DNA of 64,000 nucleotides from Candidatus Woesebacteria bacterium (lineage in GTDB: Bacteria > Patescibacteriota > Microgenomatia > UBA8517): contig CP058602.1 of NCBI GenBank assembly GCA_013426185.1, positions 335,123-399,122 of the forward strand. The letters are read 5' to 3'. The notes beneath the pieces were generated by a model that was given only the letters and a program-made list of their open reading frames with translations, had not been told where the DNA came from and made no database searches. This document shows, piece after piece, positions 42,785 to 54,824 of the stretch (positions within the stretch are counted from its first letter, which is position 1; each line of letters begins with the position of its first letter). Both the position numbers and the translations under genes were made by a program.

Positions 42785-43562
42785 AATTCCAAGCCGGGTT
42801 TGGAATTCTATTGACAACGCGGGAAATTTCAATGAAGATATAAGTAAAACATGCCAATTCGAAAGATTCCCTTAAGGACCGGCTATATCTACCATATATT
42901 TAATCGAGGTATAAATCATGCTCCTATTTTCTACAGCAAAAGAGATTACCAAAGATTTACAAATCTTATAAGTTATTATCGCTGGGGTGATAATCCAGTA
43001 AAATATTCTCGTTTTCAGACTCTTTCAGATGAAATTAAAAATGAAATAAGACAAAACTCTAAAGAGAAATTGGTAAGTTTTATTTCCAACTGCCTAATAC
43101 CCAATCACTTTCACTTTGTCCTGCGTCAAGAGAAGGAAAACGGTATCAGCTATTTTGTTAACCGTTTCTTAGCAGCATACACAAAATTCTTCAACACCAA
43201 ATACAAAAGAAGTGGTCCGTTGTTTGAAAACAGATTCAAAGCTGTGCTAGTTGAAACTGACGAACAATTAATACACCTTGTAAGATATATCCACTTGAAT
43301 CCTTATTCTTCGGGAGTGGTCAAAAGCTTAAGAGGCTTATTGAGCTATCCATGGTCTTCGTTACAAGAGTATCTAGATCCTCAAGTCATAGGTATTTGTG
43401 ATGAAAAAGAAATGGTCTTAAAGCTTTTTAAAGATGACAGGGAAACTTTTAAAAAATTTACTTTAGACCAAGCAGAATACCAGAAAAGATTAGACAAGAT
43501 AAAGCATCTTATACAAGAATAAATCCCGCGTTGGCGTAGCTTTTCCAAACCCGGCTTGGAAA
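42785..43562 (+). mobile_element. RAYT locus bounded by inverted REP hairpins
   Basis: Left TTCCAAGCCGGGTTTGGAA-N9-CAACGCGGGA (42787-42824); right TCCCGCGTTG-N9-TTCCAAACCCGGCTTGGAA (43524-43561), conserved blocks are exact reverse complements. Confidence 0.85.
42851..43522 (+). CDS. REP-associated tyrosine (Y1 HUH) transposase, RAYT
   Basis: YHIFNRG, PNHFH (HUH), GPLFENRFK, YIHLNP (catalytic Tyr), YPWSS. Confidence 0.9.
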   Translation: MPIRKIPLRTGYIYHIFNRGINHAPIFYSKRDYQRFTNLISYYRWGDNPVKYSRFQTLSDEIKNEIRQNSKEKLVSFISNCLIPNHFHFVLRQEKENGISYFVNRFLAAYTKFFNTKYKRSGPLFENRFKAVLVETDEQLIHLVRYIHLNPYSSGVVKSLRGLLSYPWSSLQEYLDPQVIGICDEKEMVLKLFKDDRETFKKFTLDQAEYQKRLDKIKHLIQE

Positions 43563-47209: not shown

Positions 47210-47306
47210 CTTATTACTCTTCTCTAACAATTAATTTGAATATAAAAGATATCTGAAGCCAAGAAAAACCCCTCCTTAAGTCAAAAAGAGGTCTAAGACT
47301 TAGATC

Positions 47307-50300
47307 CTATTTCTTTCCCCCGGAGCGAAACTTCCTTAAACCAAGGTAACCTGCAAAAAGTAAAACAGCGATTATTCCAACTGTCAATTTAGTTCTGTCT
47401 TTGGCAAATTTAACAGCCTGTCCCAAAACCCCTCCTTTTTCTTCCTCGGGAGCTTGAGTTGGTGAAGGAGTTGCCTCTTCTGTCTTCTCTTCTCCCAACA
47501 CCTCGCCAGTCGCCTTTTCTTTAGGCAAAATTTTAACTACTTCAGGAGTAGAAGTTGCAGAAACTGATGCTCCCAAAACTGATCCCGCCGAGACTTGAGT
47601 TTCAGGATCTGAAACGACAGATGAAGCATTGCCCGCCTTATCAATTGCTCTTATGGCAAAATAATATTCTTTTCCAGGAGCGGCAGCATTTTCTGAAGTC
47701 ATCTCGGTATCTTTTGATCCCCAGATGGTTGCTACCTCAGTTGAAGAATCAGCCGTGAAATTGGTACTATCCGAACGATAGATTATTACCTTGTCAAAAT
47801 CTTCATTGTCAGGGTTTCGCCAATAAAGCTTGTAGTGTCCATCCCCCAACTTTTCCTTCCTGTAATCGCGAACTGCATCGGGCGCTTGCCTGTCAACTAT
47901 AGTTGAAGTCTCGTCCTCGGCTGTTCCGCCATTAATTACAACCTTGAAGAAATATTTGCCATCTCCATTATAAAAATCACCGCCTGAAACCTGAACATAT
48001 CCTGACGCGCCAGTCAAAGCAGAACCCAAAGTTCTCCAAGACGAATCGCCATCTTTCTTTACATAAAACTGAGCTGAAATTGGATTTTCAGACAAAGCGG
48101 CGTATGAAATCTTAAAGTCTTCTTTATTGATATAGCTTGAAAGCTTGGTTATTGATACATAATCCGAGAAAGCCTTAGCAAAAGGAGCAAAAAGAGAAAA
48201 TACAAGAAGAAAAAGTATTGAGGCAAAAATATTCTTTAATCCTTTCTTGAAACGGCGATAATCAATCCAGTTTTTATTAAGAGCAAAACTGCCAAATTTA
48301 AGGAACAGACCAAAAATTAAAGCGGCAATAGCAAAGACAAAGAAGCGTGTATCAGAACCAGCAGCCGGCAAAACTTGACCCGCTTCAGTTGATGCCCCCA
48401 AGACCTGGCCTACCACTCCAACTCCTGTTGAGTAAGCTAGAACTTGCTTTAACTCAACTTGGGAGTTAACAGGCATGCCAGCATTACTTTCCACCCTCTC
48501 GCCACTCTCTGTATTCTCTGACACTGCCAAAACTTCAACTGGTTCAAAAATTCCTACTACCTCTTCGTTCCCTTCATGCTCATAAGGAATATAAACCCCC
48601 GTCGCAATAGCTATATTTGGATAGACTCCCGAAGTAAGGCTAGGATCAGACTTCATCTTATAAGTTAGAGTCTTTGTATCGCCTTTTTTTCCGGAAGCTT
48701 CAAGCGTGTCAATATACCATTCAAGATAACCAGAAAGCGCAGTTGGCGTGATTGGATTGCCTTCAAGCAGACCAGAACCATTAACATAGCTAAATCCACC
48801 AGCAGGAGCGTCCTTGATAGTTACACCTGTTAAGCGCTGATTGCCTGTATTTTTAATAACAAGAGTATAAATTACCTCGCTTCCTGAAGACAAAGGGCTC
48901 ACAGCGCTATTTGATTTAGTCAAAGAAAGGCCCAAAACAACCTTTAAATTACCAAAGTTGGCCTGAACATCTTTACCTGGATCTACTGTTACATTCTTAC
49001 AATTTCCTTCTGTTGGGTCTGTTGCTATCCACCCTTCGCTTAAAACCTCGCAAACTTGATAGTCGCCCGGAATAACATTGGCAAAAGAATAAGCACCATC
49101 CCCCCCCGTGGTCGTACTATCAATTTCGGTATCGCCCTGTTTTAACACTATTGTCCAACCAGGAAGTAAATTATTCTCATTTTCATCTCGAGATCCGTTG
49201 CCATTGATATCCTCATATTTATAACCAGAGATTGAACCTCTTTTGGTATTAGTAAAGGTACAAGTGACAGTTTCACCTGGTTCAACATTAAATGTGGCTG
49301 TTCGTGTAGAGGTGTTACCAATACTGTTTTCATCATCGCATGTTAAACTTGTCAAATCCCAACCTGTTTTTGCTGATTCAGTTGATGTATATTGATGACC
49401 TGGTAAGACTTCTGCTTTGAAAAGTGTGCCGTTATTTGAATTTATTGTTCCTGAGACATCACCAGTAAAGTCAAAACTGTCTGTACCGCCAACCATTATT
49501 TTTTTAACAATTATCTCTCCGTAATGAGAATTTATGAAAGTAAATGAATTTTTGCTTCCGCTTAACACCGTACCAAAATCATAAGTTGTTGGAGTAAGAT
49601 TTGTCCAACCTGTTTGTACTTCTTCGCTGACTGCATAACTTCCTGGACCAAGATTACTCCACGTATAACATCCGTCTTCACCGGTTGTTTTTGTATCTTT
49701 ATTATTAGTATCTCCATTTTTTATTAAACTTACGCTCCATCCTGAAATCGGCGTTTGGTCATTTGTTGTTTGTGTATCAGCATCAGCATCCTCTAATTTA
49801 CAAGCTTTAATTGAAACATTTTGAAAATTCCCAAAGTTGGAAATTGTTTGCTCACCCGCTACCACAGTAATTGAATTACATACAGGTGAAGTTAGACCAA
49901 CCCCGGGATCTGTATTAGACCAATCTGTTTGATTTATTTCACAGACTTTGTAGTTTCCTGGAACAATATTCATAAATGAATAATTGCCGTTTACATCAGT
50001 TGTTGTTGAAGCAAGCTCGGTAGTACCAGCTTCATCCATTAATTTCACTGTCCATCCGCTAAGGCCATTTTCTCCGTCATTTTTGACGCCATTTCCATTT
50101 ATATCGTTATATTTTATTCCAGCCACGGAACCTCTTTTGGTATTAGTAAAGGTACAAGTAACGTTCTCACCAGCAGCTAATTTTATGGTTGCTGATGGAG
50201 AGGTAGGTAAATTACTAGAAGAATCTTCGGTTGGATCATTGCAAGTTATATTAGTTAAATCCCAACCAGTTGTTGAATTTTCAGTTACAGTATAAGTTCC

Positions 50301-52517
50301 GGCAACCACATTGAAATTTTTTGAGTTTGGTAAAGTTTGATCATCGTCGTCATCTAAAGAAAAATTCCCTAAGTCTCCGGTAAATGAAAAGTCTTGAGGA
50401 TCGTTTGGTTGGGCATCTTTGACAATAGTAATTGTTCCTTGGTTGAGAGTGTTGGTGAAAGTACAAACTACAGAGTCCTCTGTATTACCACTTTTTCCTA
50501 TTTGAATTCCTGAAGCGCTTGTTCCGGTGCCGCTAAGATAGGAGGAACCGTTTTTAGTACAAGACCACTGGGTAGTATAGTTATTAAGATTAGTATTATT
50601 ACCCGCTGTTTCTGTGATTGTGTATGTCCCTAAGTCTACTGAATTAATTCCAGTTGATCCACTGCCAGAGACCGATAGATTAAGATTGGTTGGTCCGCTC
50701 ACAGCAAAATTCCAATTGGTGGAAGAATCATTTGGAACAACATCTTTAATTATTGTCAAACTTCCCTTGTCAGTACGAATAATGACACAGTCTGAAGGGT
50801 CAGAATTAGGTTGAGTTGAGGGATAAGAACAAACATCAAGTAAACTAGCAGAGCTCCCATTACCAATGTCAGCAAGATCTATAGAACAGGAAGCTTTAGT
50901 ATCATTCGGGGAGGAAGCACCAGCAGGAAAAGGATCATCGGCAGAATTTGTCACAGTGCAGCTACTCCGAGAAGGTGAGCCAATTAAAGTACTTCCGGCG
51001 CAACGGTCGGAACGAGTATCATTACAACTATACAAAGTGGGACTACCTGGGACCTGACTTTGACCATTGTTCCATGTAACACAAATTGCATAATTAGCTA
51101 ACCCATCATTATCTGTATCAAATAAAGCGCAAGCGTCAGCGGTATTTGAACCAGGCATAGAAGTTTCATCCCAGTTCCATGTGATTTCCAACGGATTATT
51201 TTGCGTTAAATTACGACAGAGCTTTGTTAAATCTTTTTGACCTGGCTCATCATTAACTCCTGCTGTGTCATTCACACAAGAGAAAGTTGGCGTAGGCGTA
51301 GGAGTTGGGGTAGAAGTTGGAATGGGAGTTGGACTAGCTTCAGTATAATCAACAATTAAATATATTTGAGTCACTATTGCTGTTTTATTCGCACTATTTT
51401 CAACACCAAACTTTACAGACCAACTATTAACTTCAGCTAATGTCCAAGCGGCTCCCGTAAACGGATTAGTTGGCATAACACGACTATACGTGGCATAACT
51501 CCCAGTAAGATTATTATCACTTCCAACACTTCTATCACCATCTGAAGGACCTTTTTCAACTAAAAGTTTTAACTTAGCGCCACCCTGACCTTCTTTGGCA
51601 ACAACATTTAGAGTCACAGAATTGATCGTTGCTCCGGCAGGAACACCCGCATTTGAAAAAGTAAACGATTGTCTTTGTCCATTACCACTATTCGTTATAT
51701 ATGTGGTGTCTCCATCATTTGTTGAAACTGCTGTAACTTTATCTCCGACATTTGCCGTCCATTGATCATAGTTAGCAATTGCTGTAGCTACAAGAGATGA
51801 ACTCAATGTATCCGTAAAACTCACTGAAGCAACAACTGTTCCTGAAGTATCTTTTACCTCAACCAAATAATTCGGCCTGTAGGTGCCGTCAAGTTGATAG
51901 GTGTAAAAAAGGCTACCTGACTCATCTGTGGTAACCCTGTCTGAAAACCTGAAATTACCAGTTTCAGAAGTAATTACCAATTCATACTCTGTATTTGGCA
52001 AAAAGCCACTTCCTGTTATTACAACCGCATCTGTCGGAGCATAATCAAACTTGTCAGTTTTCAAGGTTGCGCTGGTCGTCTCAATATAACTAAGATCAGG
52101 CTCTTCTATTTCTTCTGCATTGGTGTTGCCAAGAATAAAAGCGTTTAATTTAGCATTACTTTCCTCTTCTACTTTAGGGCTACTTTCAAGTTGAGGTGTG
52201 GAAGATTTCCCCAAGACATTTTCTTGGGGTTGATCTTTTACAGTTGCAGATGGAGAAGGTTTAAAAGTTGGTTCTAAAGTTGGAGTGAGAGTTGCTTCTG
52301 GTATCGGCGTATTATAGTTTGTTTGAGCATCTGATGTCGGCTCTACTGTTGGTTCAGCGGTTGGTTCTACTGTTGGCTCTGGCGTCATTTCAACAACTGG
52401 AGTTGGTTCTGGAGTTTCTTGGGCTAAGACAAGCAAAGGAGACCAAAAGGATATGGAGTTAACTAAAATAGAAAAGACAGATATTAAGGCAATTAACCTT
52501 CTTTTACTTTTATTCAT
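47307..52517 (-). CDS. Large surface protein: signal peptide, P/T linkers, Cys-rich domain, SpaA/SdrD-B (Cna-B-like) Ig repeats, DUF11-like domain, internal LPAAG sorting signal, second signal peptide, FN3-like domain, C-terminal TM
   Basis: Repeated CTFTN junctions and GxKYxDxNGNG...L.GWT motifs; LPAAG at 48357-48371; adjacent sortase gene. Confidence 0.85.
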   Translation of the reverse strand: MNKSKRRLIALISVFSILVNSISFWSPLLVLAQETPEPTPVVEMTPEPTVEPTAEPTVEPTSDAQTNYNTPIPEATLTPTLEPTFKPSPSATVKDQPQENVLGKSSTPQLESSPKVEEESNAKLNAFILGNTNAEEIEEPDLSYIETTSATLKTDKFDYAPTDAVVITGSGFLPNTEYELVITSETGNFRFSDRVTTDESGSLFYTYQLDGTYRPNYLVEVKDTSGTVVASVSFTDTLSSSLVATAIANYDQWTANVGDKVTAVSTNDGDTTYITNSGNGQRQSFTFSNAGVPAGATINSVTLNVVAKEGQGGAKLKLLVEKGPSDGDRSVGSDNNLTGSYATYSRVMPTNPFTGAAWTLAEVNSWSVKFGVENSANKTAIVTQIYLIVDYTEASPTPIPTSTPTPTPTPTFSCVNDTAGVNDEPGQKDLTKLCRNLTQNNPLEITWNWDETSMPGSNTADACALFDTDNDGLANYAICVTWNNGQSQVPGSPTLYSCNDTRSDRCAGSTLIGSPSRSSCTVTNSADDPFPAGASSPNDTKASCSIDLADIGNGSSASLLDVCSYPSTQPNSDPSDCVIIRTDKGSLTIIKDVVPNDSSTNWNFAVSGPTNLNLSVSGSGSTGINSVDLGTYTITETAGNNTNLNNYTTQWSCTKNGSSYLSGTGTSASGIQIGKSGNTEDSVVCTFTNTLNQGTITIVKDAQPNDPQDFSFTGDLGNFSLDDDDDQTLPNSKNFNVVAGTYTVTENSTTGWDLTNITCNDPTEDSSSNLPTSPSATIKLAAGENVTCTFTNTKRGSVAGIKYNDINGNGVKNDGENGLSGWTVKLMDEAGTTELASTTTDVNGNYSFMNIVPGNYKVCEINQTDWSNTDPGVGLTSPVCNSITVVAGEQTISNFGNFQNVSIKACKLEDADADTQTTNDQTPISGWSVSLIKNGDTNNKDTKTTGEDGCYTWSNLGPGSYAVSEEVQTGWTNLTPTTYDFGTVLSGSKNSFTFINSHYGEIIVKKIMVGGTDSFDFTGDVSGTINSNNGTLFKAEVLPGHQYTSTESAKTGWDLTSLTCDDENSIGNTSTRTATFNVEPGETVTCTFTNTKRGSISGYKYEDINGNGSRDENENNLLPGWTIVLKQGDTEIDSTTTGGDGAYSFANVIPGDYQVCEVLSEGWIATDPTEGNCKNVTVDPGKDVQANFGNLKVVLGLSLTKSNSAVSPLSSGSEVIYTLVIKNTGNQRLTGVTIKDAPAGGFSYVNGSGLLEGNPITPTALSGYLEWYIDTLEASGKKGDTKTLTYKMKSDPSLTSGVYPNIAIATGVYIPYEHEGNEEVVGIFEPVEVLAVSENTESGERVESNAGMPVNSQVELKQVLAYSTGVGVVGQVLGASTEAGQVLPAAGSDTRFFVFAIAALIFGLFLKFGSFALNKNWIDYRRFKKGLKNIFASILFLLVFSLFAPFAKAFSDYVSITKLSSYINKEDFKISYAALSENPISAQFYVKKDGDSSWRTLGSALTGASGYVQVSGGDFYNGDGKYFFKVVINGGTAEDETSTIVDRQAPDAVRDYRKEKLGDGHYKLYWRNPDNEDFDKVIIYRSDSTNFTADSSTEVATIWGSKDTEMTSENAAAPGKEYYFAIRAIDKAGNASSVVSDPETQVSAGSVLGASVSATSTPEVVKILPKEKATGEVLGEEKTEEATPSPTQAPEEEKGGVLGQAVKFAKDRTKLTVGIIAVLLFAGYLGLRKFRSGGKK

Positions 52518-52539
52518 TAAGAATGGGCTAACTAGCTCG

Positions 52540-52567
52540 ATTATAACACTGCTATAGGAGTTGTCAA
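52540..52567 (-). promoter_or_regulatory. Promoter of the large surface-protein gene
   Basis: TTGACA (52562-52567), 16 bp, extended TGtTATAAT (-10 at 52540-52545). Confidence 0.7.
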
Positions 52568-52602
52568 TAATGTCAAGATAACCCTATTACAATTACTATA
52601 TC

Positions 52603-53244
52603 CTATTTTAATTCAACCCCACCATCTTGATGTGCAATAACAACCAGCCTCCTCAAGGTTGTTCCCGGCGGGTAGCAGGTTTGAAGGGTCAATGTATTCC
52701 ATTTTCCTGAATTGCCAAGATAAAAAACATCCTTCGCATCTACAACCTTTTTATCAGATACCTTATAAACAAACTTCTTTTCCTTATAATAAATATCTAT
52801 CTCGTCTCCTCTTTCAAGTTTTCCAAGAAGATAGAAAACGGCATTGTAACGGCCGACATTGTAAAAAGCGTCAGTTGAATGGGCAAAAAGATAGGTATTG
52901 CCAAAACTGCCAGGCAAAGCGGAATATTTTGCATGAGCCACTCCCTTTTTCAAAACTGGCAAATACTCAGAAGCATTAAAAGGATCAACATTGGCAAAAA
53001 CAGGAGCCGAAGCGCCAATTTTGGGAATAACAATTGAAAATTCAGTATTTGGCGGTTCTATTTCTTTAACTAATTTAGAATCAGATTTAACCAATGCCTG
53101 CCTTGCCTGATAGACAATTTCCTCCTTTGTCGCAGGGCCGTATATAAAAAACAAAGTCAAAAGCGAAAGAAAAATGAAAACTTCACCAGCCAAGTTGAGA
53201 TAATAAGAGACCTTCTTTTTCTCGCTTTCTATCTTGCCTGCCAT
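52603..53244 (-). CDS. Sortase
   Basis: N-terminal TM, IVIPKIG, GVAH, LFAHS (His), LTLQTC (Cys), RLVV (Arg). Confidence 0.92.
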   Translation of the reverse strand: MAGKIESEKKKVSYYLNLAGEVFIFLSLLTLFFIYGPATKEEIVYQARQALVKSDSKLVKEIEPPNTEFSIVIPKIGASAPVFANVDPFNASEYLPVLKKGVAHAKYSALPGSFGNTYLFAHSTDAFYNVGRYNAVFYLLGKLERGDEIDIYYKEKKFVYKVSDKKVVDAKDVFYLGNSGKWNTLTLQTCYPPGTTLRRLVVIAHQDGGVELK

Positions 53245-53263
53245 TAATCAATAATAACACAAA

Positions 53264-53692
53264 TCAAGAAGAGTCAAAGCCTAAGAACTTCTTTAACAAA
53301 GGCGGAAATTTGTTTTGATATTTATTTATAAGATAGACTACAAAAGAAGCGCCAAGAGTGTCTATTACTACGTCTCTAATTCTTGGCTCGCGGCCAGGAA
53401 CAAAAGATTGATGATATTCATCAGACAGGGCGTAGAAAAAAGAAATTAAGATTGACAAAAAAGCAGATTTTTTGAACGAAAACTTGCTACCCCAAAAAGC
53501 ACGAAAATAAAAAAAAGAAAGAATGGTATATTCTACAAAATGAGCTGTTTTTTTAAGCAAAAAATCCTGCCAGTAGAATTTGCTTGTCTTGATAGTCGGA
53601 AGGGAGCTAAAAAAGAAAATAAGCGCCATCCATAAAAGTGGCGGCAACCATAAATTAAAAATCTTCCTGATCTTCGCTGTCTTTGTTTTCAT
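53264..53692 (-). CDS. VanZ-family membrane protein
   Basis: WMALIFFFSS, KTAHFVEY, DEYHQSFVPGR, DVVIDTLG; start placed at ATG 53692. Confidence 0.9.
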   Translation of the reverse strand: MKTKTAKIRKIFNLWLPPLLWMALIFFFSSLPTIKTSKFYWQDFLLKKTAHFVEYTILSFFYFRAFWGSKFSFKKSAFLSILISFFYALSDEYHQSFVPGREPRIRDVVIDTLGASFVVYLINKYQNKFPPLLKKFLGFDSS

Positions 53693-54824
53693 TTTGTTTT
53701 TCTTCTTTCTTCTTTTTAGACTTAAAATAAGCATAACTTGCCGCTGACAAAAAAGAAAGACCCGCTATTATAAAAAAGACAGCCGCCAAATTAAAGTAAG
53801 AATCAGAGCCACTAGCTTCTTTATCCTCCTTTATCTTTGCTGATTCAAGACCCAAGACTCTTGGCTCAGACGAGGAATTTAGAGTTAACCCAGATTCACT
53901 GGCTTGGATAGTGTTTTCTGCCTCAAGAGAAGGGGTTGGCGAGGCCTTTGGAGTTGCTGAAGGCTTTGGAGTTGAGGTTGGAGTTGGAGTTGAAATAGTA
54001 AGAATAGGGGTTTCTTCATAATTATTACCCGCTGAAACATCAATCGTCTTGGTCCAACTCTTATAACCAGTTTTTTCAACTTTTATGGTATGGCTGCCAA
54101 AACCACAGGAGACTTTGTTTGAACCGCATTTGCAATCATCGCAAAAAGTATAAGTTTCAGGGGCATAATTGCCGGTATAATTTCCATCAATATAAATCTG
54201 TGTCGCGCCACTTACAACATTATCATTCTGATCTCTCGCGTCATTGATCTTCAAATTAGCCTTGGGTTTTTCAGGACTCTGTGCTGGCGTTGGTAAAGGC
54301 GTGGGAGAAGGAGTTGGAATGGGTAATGCAACATTTATCTTAAAAGCCTCTGCCTCACTAGAACCACTATAACTACCGCAGCTAGATGTAAAACGAAAAG
54401 CTTTGATTACATACTCTCCATTGGGCAAATCATTATTGTCTCCTATTTTAATATTCAAAACATATTCACCATCTGAAGTTATCTTAAAATATTTGTTACA
54501 TTGATTATTACTCTTGTCAGAAGATAAAGAATCAATCTTGACCCAATCCCCATCATTATCCTTCATATAACCAATATAAGAATTGCTGTTTTTAATACCT
54601 ACCTTGAAAAAAGAATCTCCCAAAGGTAGGGAATCGACCACAATCCTTACATCTATTACATCTTCTTTGGAATAAACCTGTACTGGTTCTACCTCTGAAA
54701 TATAAAAGTTAAAAGCAGACTGAACGGATTTTGTAAAGACAAAAAGAAAAAAAACAAGATTGATAGTCAATATTGTCAAAAATAAACTAGAGGATAATTT
54801 TGTTCTACCAGTAATAGCTATCAT
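53655..54824 (-). CDS. Exported, C-terminally anchored protein with PEGA-like domain and P/T linkers
   Basis: Signal sequence, IYIDGNYTG...GSHTIKVEKTGY (PEGA-like), C-terminal TM with basic tail. Confidence 0.75.
   Translation of the reverse strand: MIAITGRTKLSSSLFLTILTINLVFFLFVFTKSVQSAFNFYISEVEPVQVYSKEDVIDVRIVVDSLPLGDSFFKVGIKNSNSYIGYMKDNDGDWVKIDSLSSDKSNNQCNKYFKITSDGEYVLNIKIGDNNDLPNGEYVIKAFRFTSSCGSYSGSSEAEAFKINVALPIPTPSPTPLPTPAQSPEKPKANLKINDARDQNDNVVSGATQIYIDGNYTGNYAPETYTFCDDCKCGSNKVSCGFGSHTIKVEKTGYKSWTKTIDVSAGNNYEETPILTISTPTPTSTPKPSATPKASPTPSLEAENTIQASESGLTLNSSSEPRVLGLESAKIKEDKEASGSDSYFNLAAVFFIIAGLSFLSAASYAYFKSKKKKEEKQNENKDSEDQEDF

Follow-up and report, generated by a model that had tools for sequence, protein, structure and literature searches.

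An internal sorting signal followed in frame by a second signal peptide joins a fibrillar-adhesin-type protein and its conserved partner in one gene of a Candidatus Woesebacteria bacterium

Introduction

Sorting signals of sortase substrates are assumed to be C-terminal, and annotation tools therefore miss both products of the gene described here, a 1736-amino-acid (aa) open reading frame (ORF) with an internal sorting signal, which lies in a 64,000-nucleotide stretch (hereafter the window) of the genome of a Candidatus Woesebacteria bacterium of the Microgenomatia (Patescibacteriota; assembly GCA_013426185.1, contig CP058602.1, positions 335,123 to 399,122 of the forward strand), a genome consisting of a single contig of 818,817 bases. 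Several described systems share parts of its layout. Sortase-assembled pili are encoded by an operon of a sortase, a Cna-B-type protein and a smaller (basal) partner, with YPK as the pilin motif. In Bradyrhizobium japonicum, cytochrome b and cytochrome c1 are reportedly made from the single gene fbcH, whose product FbcH is split at an internal signal-peptide-like site; we know of no repeated switching between fused and split forms for FbcH. For the streptococcal IgA1/Zmp proteases, a cassette that comprises, in this order, an LPXTG motif, two helices and a second peptidase site has already been proposed (PMC3518915). Sortases are near ubiquitous in Microgenomates (PMC6744442) and are also noted there in a second study (PMC7143001), with no substrates named in the accessible portions of these two papers, and the pilus treated in PMC13278184 is an unrelated one. 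A literature search, with most subscription journals and supplements outside its reach, retrieved no paper on a fused adhesin-partner family and none naming a Microgenomates sortase substrate.

The ORF of the window is a natural in-frame fusion of a fibrillar-adhesin-type gene with a conserved partner gene. Two enzymes, signal peptidase I (at A-K-A) and the adjacent sortase (at LPAA/G), likely split its chain into a wall-linked adhesin and a membrane-anchored protein with two FN3 domains.

Architecture of the fused gene

In the chain, the adhesin leads into the motif LPAAG and a helix; a basic loop connects these to the second signal peptide (site AKA/F), and two FN3-like domains and a C-terminal helix complete the chain, as follows (positions are those of the window; pLDDT, predicted local distance difference test).

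47307..52517, minus strand: fused ORF of 1736 aa, with adhesin (aa 1-1387), membrane hairpin (aa 1388-1449) and partner (aa 1450-1736)
48357..48371, minus strand: internal sorting motif LPAAG, predicted sortase cut A1386/G1387 by analogy to LPXT/G
48288..48344, minus strand: hairpin helix 1, the membrane span of the sorting signal (about aa 1392-1410), from hydrophobicity
48231..48287, minus strand: basic loop, net charge +5, predicted cytoplasmic; it serves at once as the charged end of the sorting signal and as the n-region of the signal peptide that follows
48171..48230, minus strand: second signal peptide, h- and c-region, with A-K-A as its last residues; signal peptidase I is predicted to cut at aa 1449/1450
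47598..48170, minus strand: partner ectodomain (aa 1450-1640), two tandem FN3-like beta-sandwich domains, AlphaFold2 pLDDT 92
47337..47393, minus strand: C-terminal membrane helix and basic tail of the partner, no LPxTG ahead of the helix

Hydrophobicity peaks along the 1736 residues at aa 8, 1392, 1429 and 1709 only. The last in-frame ATG, GTG or TTG ahead of the partner is the TTG that encodes the L of LPAAG, and hence none lies between the two signals. What a first-pass annotation, made from the letters alone, had described was borne out: a single frame with neither a stop nor an in-frame ATG/GTG/TTG between LPAAG (aa 1383-1387, 48371-48357) and the second signal (RRFKKG from aa 1421, 48257; AKA/FSD cut at aa 1449/1450, 48171/48170), an Ig/FN3-like downstream region with its own C-terminal membrane helix and basic tail, and a sortase upstream on the same strand. 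The sortase is encoded in a different frame by a separate ORF (52603-53244, minus strand).

The last 287 aa comprise two FN3-like domains, a low-complexity stalk and the C-terminal helix with its basic tail. The best structural matches of the partner model are FN3 tandems (Z 11.9, root-mean-square deviation 6.1 over 174 residues), a sequence search of the PDB with the partner returned weak FN3 matches only, and no pilin or sortase-substrate fold is among the top structural matches listed, which does not exclude its presence. Only two of 101 partners have an LPxTG-like word within the last 90 residues.

Integrity of the reading frame

The frame was checked on contigs from several studies, as opposed to raw reads. 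No gap interrupts the junction in contigs of runs X1 (possibly the source), X3 and X4. Run X5 is identical to the window over 47900-48600, an interval that it spans unbroken, and no indel is listed for runs X9 and X12. The 18 X3/X4 variants translated between 48051 and 48396 are 13 synonymous and 5 missense changes, with 0 stops. The fused layout recurs in two congeners (partner identity 73-78%) and in 48 further genomes, and a search of a protein collection for long forms returned 32 proteins, one an unrelated FN3 protein and 31 of the fused layout, 30 of which fit the motif pattern with the remaining one reading FPATG. Because the contigs lack indels and fused relatives are many, the fused frame is not an assembly error.

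Fused and split relatives

Pattern scans of genome contigs yielded 178 candidate stretches, none of which was confirmed, and the relatives come instead from whole-genome searches. The partner is present in 15 of 61 relatives (two of the matches weak), in 26 of 139 genomes of the order and in 70 of 401 genomes of the class. The set comprised 85 loci including this one, from which three were dropped, one at a contig edge (genome G057) and two with N-gaps at the junction (G481, G258), leaving 82; also uncounted were weak matches in G030 and a second one in G057, and six phylum matches at E > 1e-22, five of which were inspected and have no junction (G816 is the sixth). Homologs occur in both layouts, 32 of the 82 usable class loci being fused and 50 split. 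In the split layout, a stop codon closes the adhesin gene right after the motif, helix and basic tail, and the partner opens with a signal peptide of its own; the partner starts at most 25 nucleotides from the adhesin stop in 46 of the 47 measurable loci, overlapping or abutting in 38. In a sample of the phylum, 31 of 401 genomes match, and all 19 strong matches (E < 1e-50) outside the class are fused with the same junction.

Quick trees of 82 and 101 rows, without a true root, indicate that the state has switched repeatedly, at least 7-12 times on the partner tree, which requires 12 fused/split changes, 7 of them forced by starred branches; a topology that gathers the split rows on one side was rejected (approximately unbiased test, p 2e-112). 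Both states are found within each of three genera (g33, g94, g117). Fused rows nested in split clades (G131, G494) and split rows nested in fused ones (G034, G460) suggest both fusion and fission on these unrooted trees.

A separate observation concerns the start frame of the split partners, which is the same relative to the adhesin in 42 of 47 loci (L020-L144), with 21 at an 8-nucleotide overlap, whereas among gene overlaps across the present genome those of 4 nucleotides dominate (60 vs 11). This shared frame could reflect common descent or a slippage-prone junction.

The internal signal peptide

Helix 2 is a real signal peptide by homology, since it corresponds to the N-terminal signal peptide of the split partners (50 of 82 loci), with the same site; the first reading of this helix as a signal peptide thus stands. 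In each of the 32 fused junctions of the class, a motif of the LPxTG type or LGAATG lies 51-68 residues ahead of the partner, and two helices are present along with a loop of net positive charge (mean +4.8, minimum +1). Helix 2 is followed by [AVST]-x-A in 28/32 fused loci and 49/50 split loci, as compared with 4/32 after helix 1 and 4/32 fused and 9/50 split after the last helix of the partner; in other classes it follows helix 2 in 14/19, with controls at 2/19 and 4/19. In an alignment of 51 fused junctions with a mean column identity of 27%, Ala occupies position -1 in 49 rows and V, A, T or S position -3 in 48, with the remaining helix-2 columns variable. Helix 2 is no less hydrophobic in fused than in split rows (2.99 vs 2.80).

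The adhesin and its sorting signal

48387..48410, minus strand: G-x-V-L-G-A box immediately ahead of the sorting motif (V 50/51, L 51/51, G 49/51 fused rows)
48588..48929, minus strand: DUF11 (CLIPPER) domain, aa 1197-1310, PF01345
48942..50765, minus strand: adhesin stalk of SdrD_B and SpaA-type repeats, about aa 585-1192, PF17210, PF24514, PF17802, PF19403 and PF20674
52422..52517, minus strand: N-terminal signal peptide, the first of the two (about aa 1-32), with hydrophobicity peaking at aa 8 and a cleavage site predicted from sequence

The ORF thus has the signal peptide, tandem stalk domains and sorting signal by which fibrillar adhesins are recognized. Residues 33-585 have no Pfam match. 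In the DUF11 domain, K1201, D1236 and N1301 follow the order of an isopeptide triad, whose spacing has been described (PMC12617251), with K in 49, D in 51 and N or D in 50 of the 51 fused rows. As in a canonical LPXTG substrate, an LPxTG-like motif, a helix and a basic tail (net +5) are present, but the signal is not C-terminal, 354 residues following the start of the motif in frame. The Gly of the motif is invariant in the 51 rows and L and T/A are nearly so, position 4 being Thr in 46 and Ala in 5, which include the LPAAG found here in place of LPxTG.

Several further observations touch this signal. In nine fused loci (L131-L134, L136-L138, L140, L141), V-L-G-A-A-T-G stands in place of LPxTG, so that the VLGA box occurs twice, with TG closing the second copy, and the cognate sortases keep the same active-site motif; two proteins (among P0019, P0030 and P0031) have LGASTG instead of LPxTG. 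The VLG box may be part of sortase recognition. G-x-V-L-G words recur in the partner stalk, with three copies here (47585-47420) and at least one in 73 of 101 partners, and ahead of the C-terminal helix of a 389-aa PEGA protein encoded upstream (53655-54824). In one locus (L122, genome G242), the adhesin frame ends right after LPLTG, with helix and tail continuing in another frame, which is a frameshift or an assembly error inside the sorting signal. The adhesin (48450-52500) is much more variable than the partner: proteins whose partner parts are 98-99% identical still range from 790 to 1924 aa in total length and differ in their domains, and strain contigs diverge or break within it at 48473-48784 and 49061-49265.

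Sortase, processing enzymes and gene neighbourhood

52603..53244, minus strand: sortase of 213 aa with an N-terminal membrane anchor, PF04203 (E 8e-24), with His (AHS) and LTLQTC...R (TLxTC...R) motifs
52540..52567, minus strand: sigma-70-type promoter consensus TTGACA-16-TATAAT with TG, 12/12 positions, 23 nucleotides before the ORF start; a consensus match only
47271..47291, minus strand: terminator-like hairpin and T-run, 16 nucleotides past the ORF stop; a consensus match only

The genome encodes signal peptidase I and two sortases. A same-strand sortase lies beside 72 of the 82 loci, upstream in 32 and downstream in 42; of the 10 loci without one, eight run into a contig edge, and in G010 no sortase lies within 18 kb. 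The present sortase scores beneath the NCBIfam cut-offs for classes C, D, E and F (NF033745, class C, 54.7 bits vs a cut-off of 160; class D similar). As the promoter consensus sits in the 85-nucleotide gap between the sortase gene and the fused ORF (52567-52540), the two could be transcribed separately. A promoter inside the ORF that would serve the partner was considered and discarded, the best site (48893-48864) matching 9/12 positions, with 23 such sites as compared with 21 expected by chance.

Among 739 ORFs of the genome, five matched motif plus helix and two are plausible sorting signals, the internal LPAAG and one in a 157-aa protein (G000:C1:32524-32997), which ends in LPEAG and a helix without a basic tail. 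An unlinked second sortase gene (G000:C1:545139-545531, L146) may serve this protein. Between a sugar-nucleotide gene cluster and the surface-protein block lies a 223-aa ORF (42851-43522, plus strand), with a look-alike in locus L017, which we take from its motif to resemble a REP-associated tyrosine transposase.

Proposed processing and alternatives

The proposal is built on the frame, the two signals, the homology of helix 2, the conserved cleavage pattern, the genes for both enzymes and the repeated switching. The topology, both cuts, the acceptor, the 1:1 ratio and a role in adhesion that we infer from these would be as follows. The first signal peptide would start Sec export of the 1350-aa adhesin, helix 1 would stop transfer with the basic loop remaining cytoplasmic, and helix 2 would restart export. 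Signal peptidase I would then cut after A1449, giving the partner a free N-terminus, and the C-terminal helix would anchor the partner in the membrane. The sortase would cut LPAA/G and likely join the adhesin to the amine of the lipid II cross-bridge, so that a 63-residue hairpin would be left in the membrane and adhesin and partner would arise in equal numbers. Of the earlier idea that one translation product is cut into an adhesin and a partner at 1:1, the single frame with two surface proteins holds, and the cleavage stands as a prediction. A wall precursor is most likely the acceptor: MraY-, MurG- and FemAB-family genes and five transpeptidase-family matches are present in the genome, and these late peptidoglycan and FemAB-family genes would supply the usual sortase acceptor. 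The fixed pairing suggests that the two products work together; the partner may act as a non-covalent membrane-side scaffold or chaperone for the conserved C-terminal end of the adhesin, which we consider its most likely role.

A number of points weigh against this proposal. The motif is LPAAG and the sortase reaches no NCBIfam class cut-off. The Mur ligase N-terminal model matches nothing in the genome, where just two Mur ligase middle domains (L148, L149) were found, and the wall-precursor pathway may be incomplete, with early steps missing or divergent. The strict [AVST]-x-A rule is failed by 4 of 32 and 5 of 19 fused junctions, and much of the A-x-A match stems from Ala-rich composition, as a composition-keeping shuffle gave a mean of 22.9 of 32; the 29/32 observed nevertheless exceeds this and was reached in just 8 of 2000 shuffles, which speaks for the proposal. 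The rows are kin, and hence the counts overstate independence, and recent fusions would retain A-x-A without selection. The co-occurrence of the two, all 67 class genomes with the adhesin C-terminal region being among the 70 with the partner (401 genomes), supports the proposal, but the adhesin profile was built from partner-adjacent loci, which favours a match. Finally, 15 of the 32 fused class loci, and 6 of the 19 from other classes, have an in-frame ATG in the loop, and some fused loci may therefore also make the partner by internal initiation.

The sortase might act alone at LPAA/G, so that the partner would keep the hairpin and be held in the membrane at both ends. The junctions that miss the strict rule would fit this arrangement, yet 49 of the 51 fused rows, which have diverged deeply, retain Ala at -1 amid variable adjacent columns, and the split partners use the same site; we consider it unlikely.

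Alternatively, after both cuts the sortase might ligate the adhesin covalently to the partner, which would then serve as a membrane-anchored base replacing the wall, and which the first-pass annotation had suggested as acceptor. The near-perfect co-occurrence and tight coupling of the two genes speak for such a bond, as do the absence of an own sorting motif from 99 of 101 partners, the failure of the models tried to find MurC/MurD-like genes, and K105 of the partner, its sole strongly conserved Lys (92/101). However, K105 is replaced in nine partners (Arg 3, Val 5, Ile 1) and co-varies with D188 (K-D 89, R-D 3, K-E 3, V-E 3, V-Q 2, I-N 1), which fits a salt bridge, and it was dismissed as a sortase acceptor; the mature N-terminal residue varies (Ala in 22 of 51, Phe here), the best fold matches are FN3 tandems, and the FemAB-family and late wall genes are present. 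The suggestion was thus not supported, and ligation to the partner is rather improbable. An LPKE stretch of the partner (13 rows), considered as a pilin motif, was likewise dismissed, its Lys being kept in just 23 of 82.

That most of the partner arises by initiation within the long frame, the fusion being only apparent, is very unlikely. Besides the loop ATG codons counted above, some ATG, GTG or TTG is present in the loop of 25 of 32 fused class loci, and an in-frame ATT lies at 48266 here; but the loop has none of the three codons in 7 of the 32, this gene and six others, nor in 8 of 19 in other classes, where some loops are 6-7 residues long, and even with internal initiation, ribosomes reading the adhesin would encounter no stop. 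The ATT was rejected as a start, as it is not conserved, the aligned codons in two congeners being GTA and ATC.

It is more doubtful still that the chain is an uncut three-helix membrane protein with both signals as relics, given that the sorting motif is nearly invariant in the 51 fused rows and that 72 of the 82 loci have a sortase alongside whose motifs are intact. A sequencing or assembly error that deleted a stop or frameshift, conceivable because the short overlap of split loci lies in A-rich DNA, so that a single indel could join the genes, and because the lone fused rows in split clades (G131, G494) could be such errors, is refuted at this locus by the contigs, the fused congeners and further genomes, and the 31 long proteins described above.

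Significance

Polyproteins that housekeeping membrane enzymes cut are rare in bacteria, and this family offers a natural experiment in which the same two proteins exist as overlapping genes and as one chain. The occurrence of joined and separate forms, with at least 7-12 switches, shows that one stretch can serve both as the tail of a sorting signal and as the n-region of a signal peptide. The locus names a predicted Microgenomates sortase substrate together with its fixed partner, is a testable candidate for host attachment by these symbionts, and has a junction amenable to a laboratory Gram-positive host without culturing the source organism. More tentatively, it is possible that Patescibacteria possess a three-part surface machine, comprising a sortase, a variable giant adhesin and a conserved two-FN3 partner, which flips freely between an operon and a virus-like polyprotein; the partner would be the membrane base that carries the sortase-cut adhesin, by a covalent or a non-covalent link, in place of the wall or ahead of it, and the whole might be a host-attachment organelle of many ultrasmall symbionts.

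Comparison with known systems

The composition of the locus, with a sortase, a Cna-B-type protein and a smaller partner, resembles the operons of sortase-assembled pili, and the first-pass annotation had offered pilin as one identity for the adhesin. This was not supported: the stalk consists of SdrD_B, SpaA-type and DUF11 domains, no YPK pilin motif occurs in the 1736-aa chain, and the sortase scores below the class C cut-off, with class D scoring similarly. Unlike in pili, the partner combines FN3 folds with a simple membrane anchor, and none of its Lys positions is invariant. An obligatory acceptor Lys, as expected of a basal pilin, is lacking, the best column having Lys in 92 of 101 with R, V or I as replacements. 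With the FbcH type, the fused ORF shares two proteins elsewhere separate (32 fused and 50 split loci here) placed in one frame with an internal signal peptide, but FbcH concerns respiratory membrane proteins without a sortase.

With the canonical LPXTG signal and Sdr-type fibrillar adhesins (PMC12617251), the family shares motif, helix and basic residues, an adjacent sortase and the same stalk families, and the split relatives are ordinary LPXTG adhesins in layout. The fused ORF differs in that its signal lies 354 residues from the C-terminus and the basic tail at the same time forms the n-region of the signal peptide behind it, and the fused family in its conserved G-x-V-L-G-A box ahead of the motif and in the variants LPAAG and LGAATG.

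The IgA1/Zmp proteases (M26) have in common with the fused ORF an LPXTG-type motif, two helices and a second peptidase site, the last of these predicted here. With this precedent, which the first-pass annotation had not considered, the cassette as such is not new. No protease family, M26 included, and no G5 domain is found among the Pfam and NCBIfam matches of the whole chain, and in Zmp the motif is near the N-terminus with the large product C-terminal, whereas here a 1350-aa adhesin precedes the motif (aa 1383 of 1736), the downstream product has its own C-terminal membrane anchor, and relatives encode the halves as separate genes. What is new here is that both products are full proteins, the second with an anchor of its own, and that the pair alternates repeatedly between operon and polyprotein.

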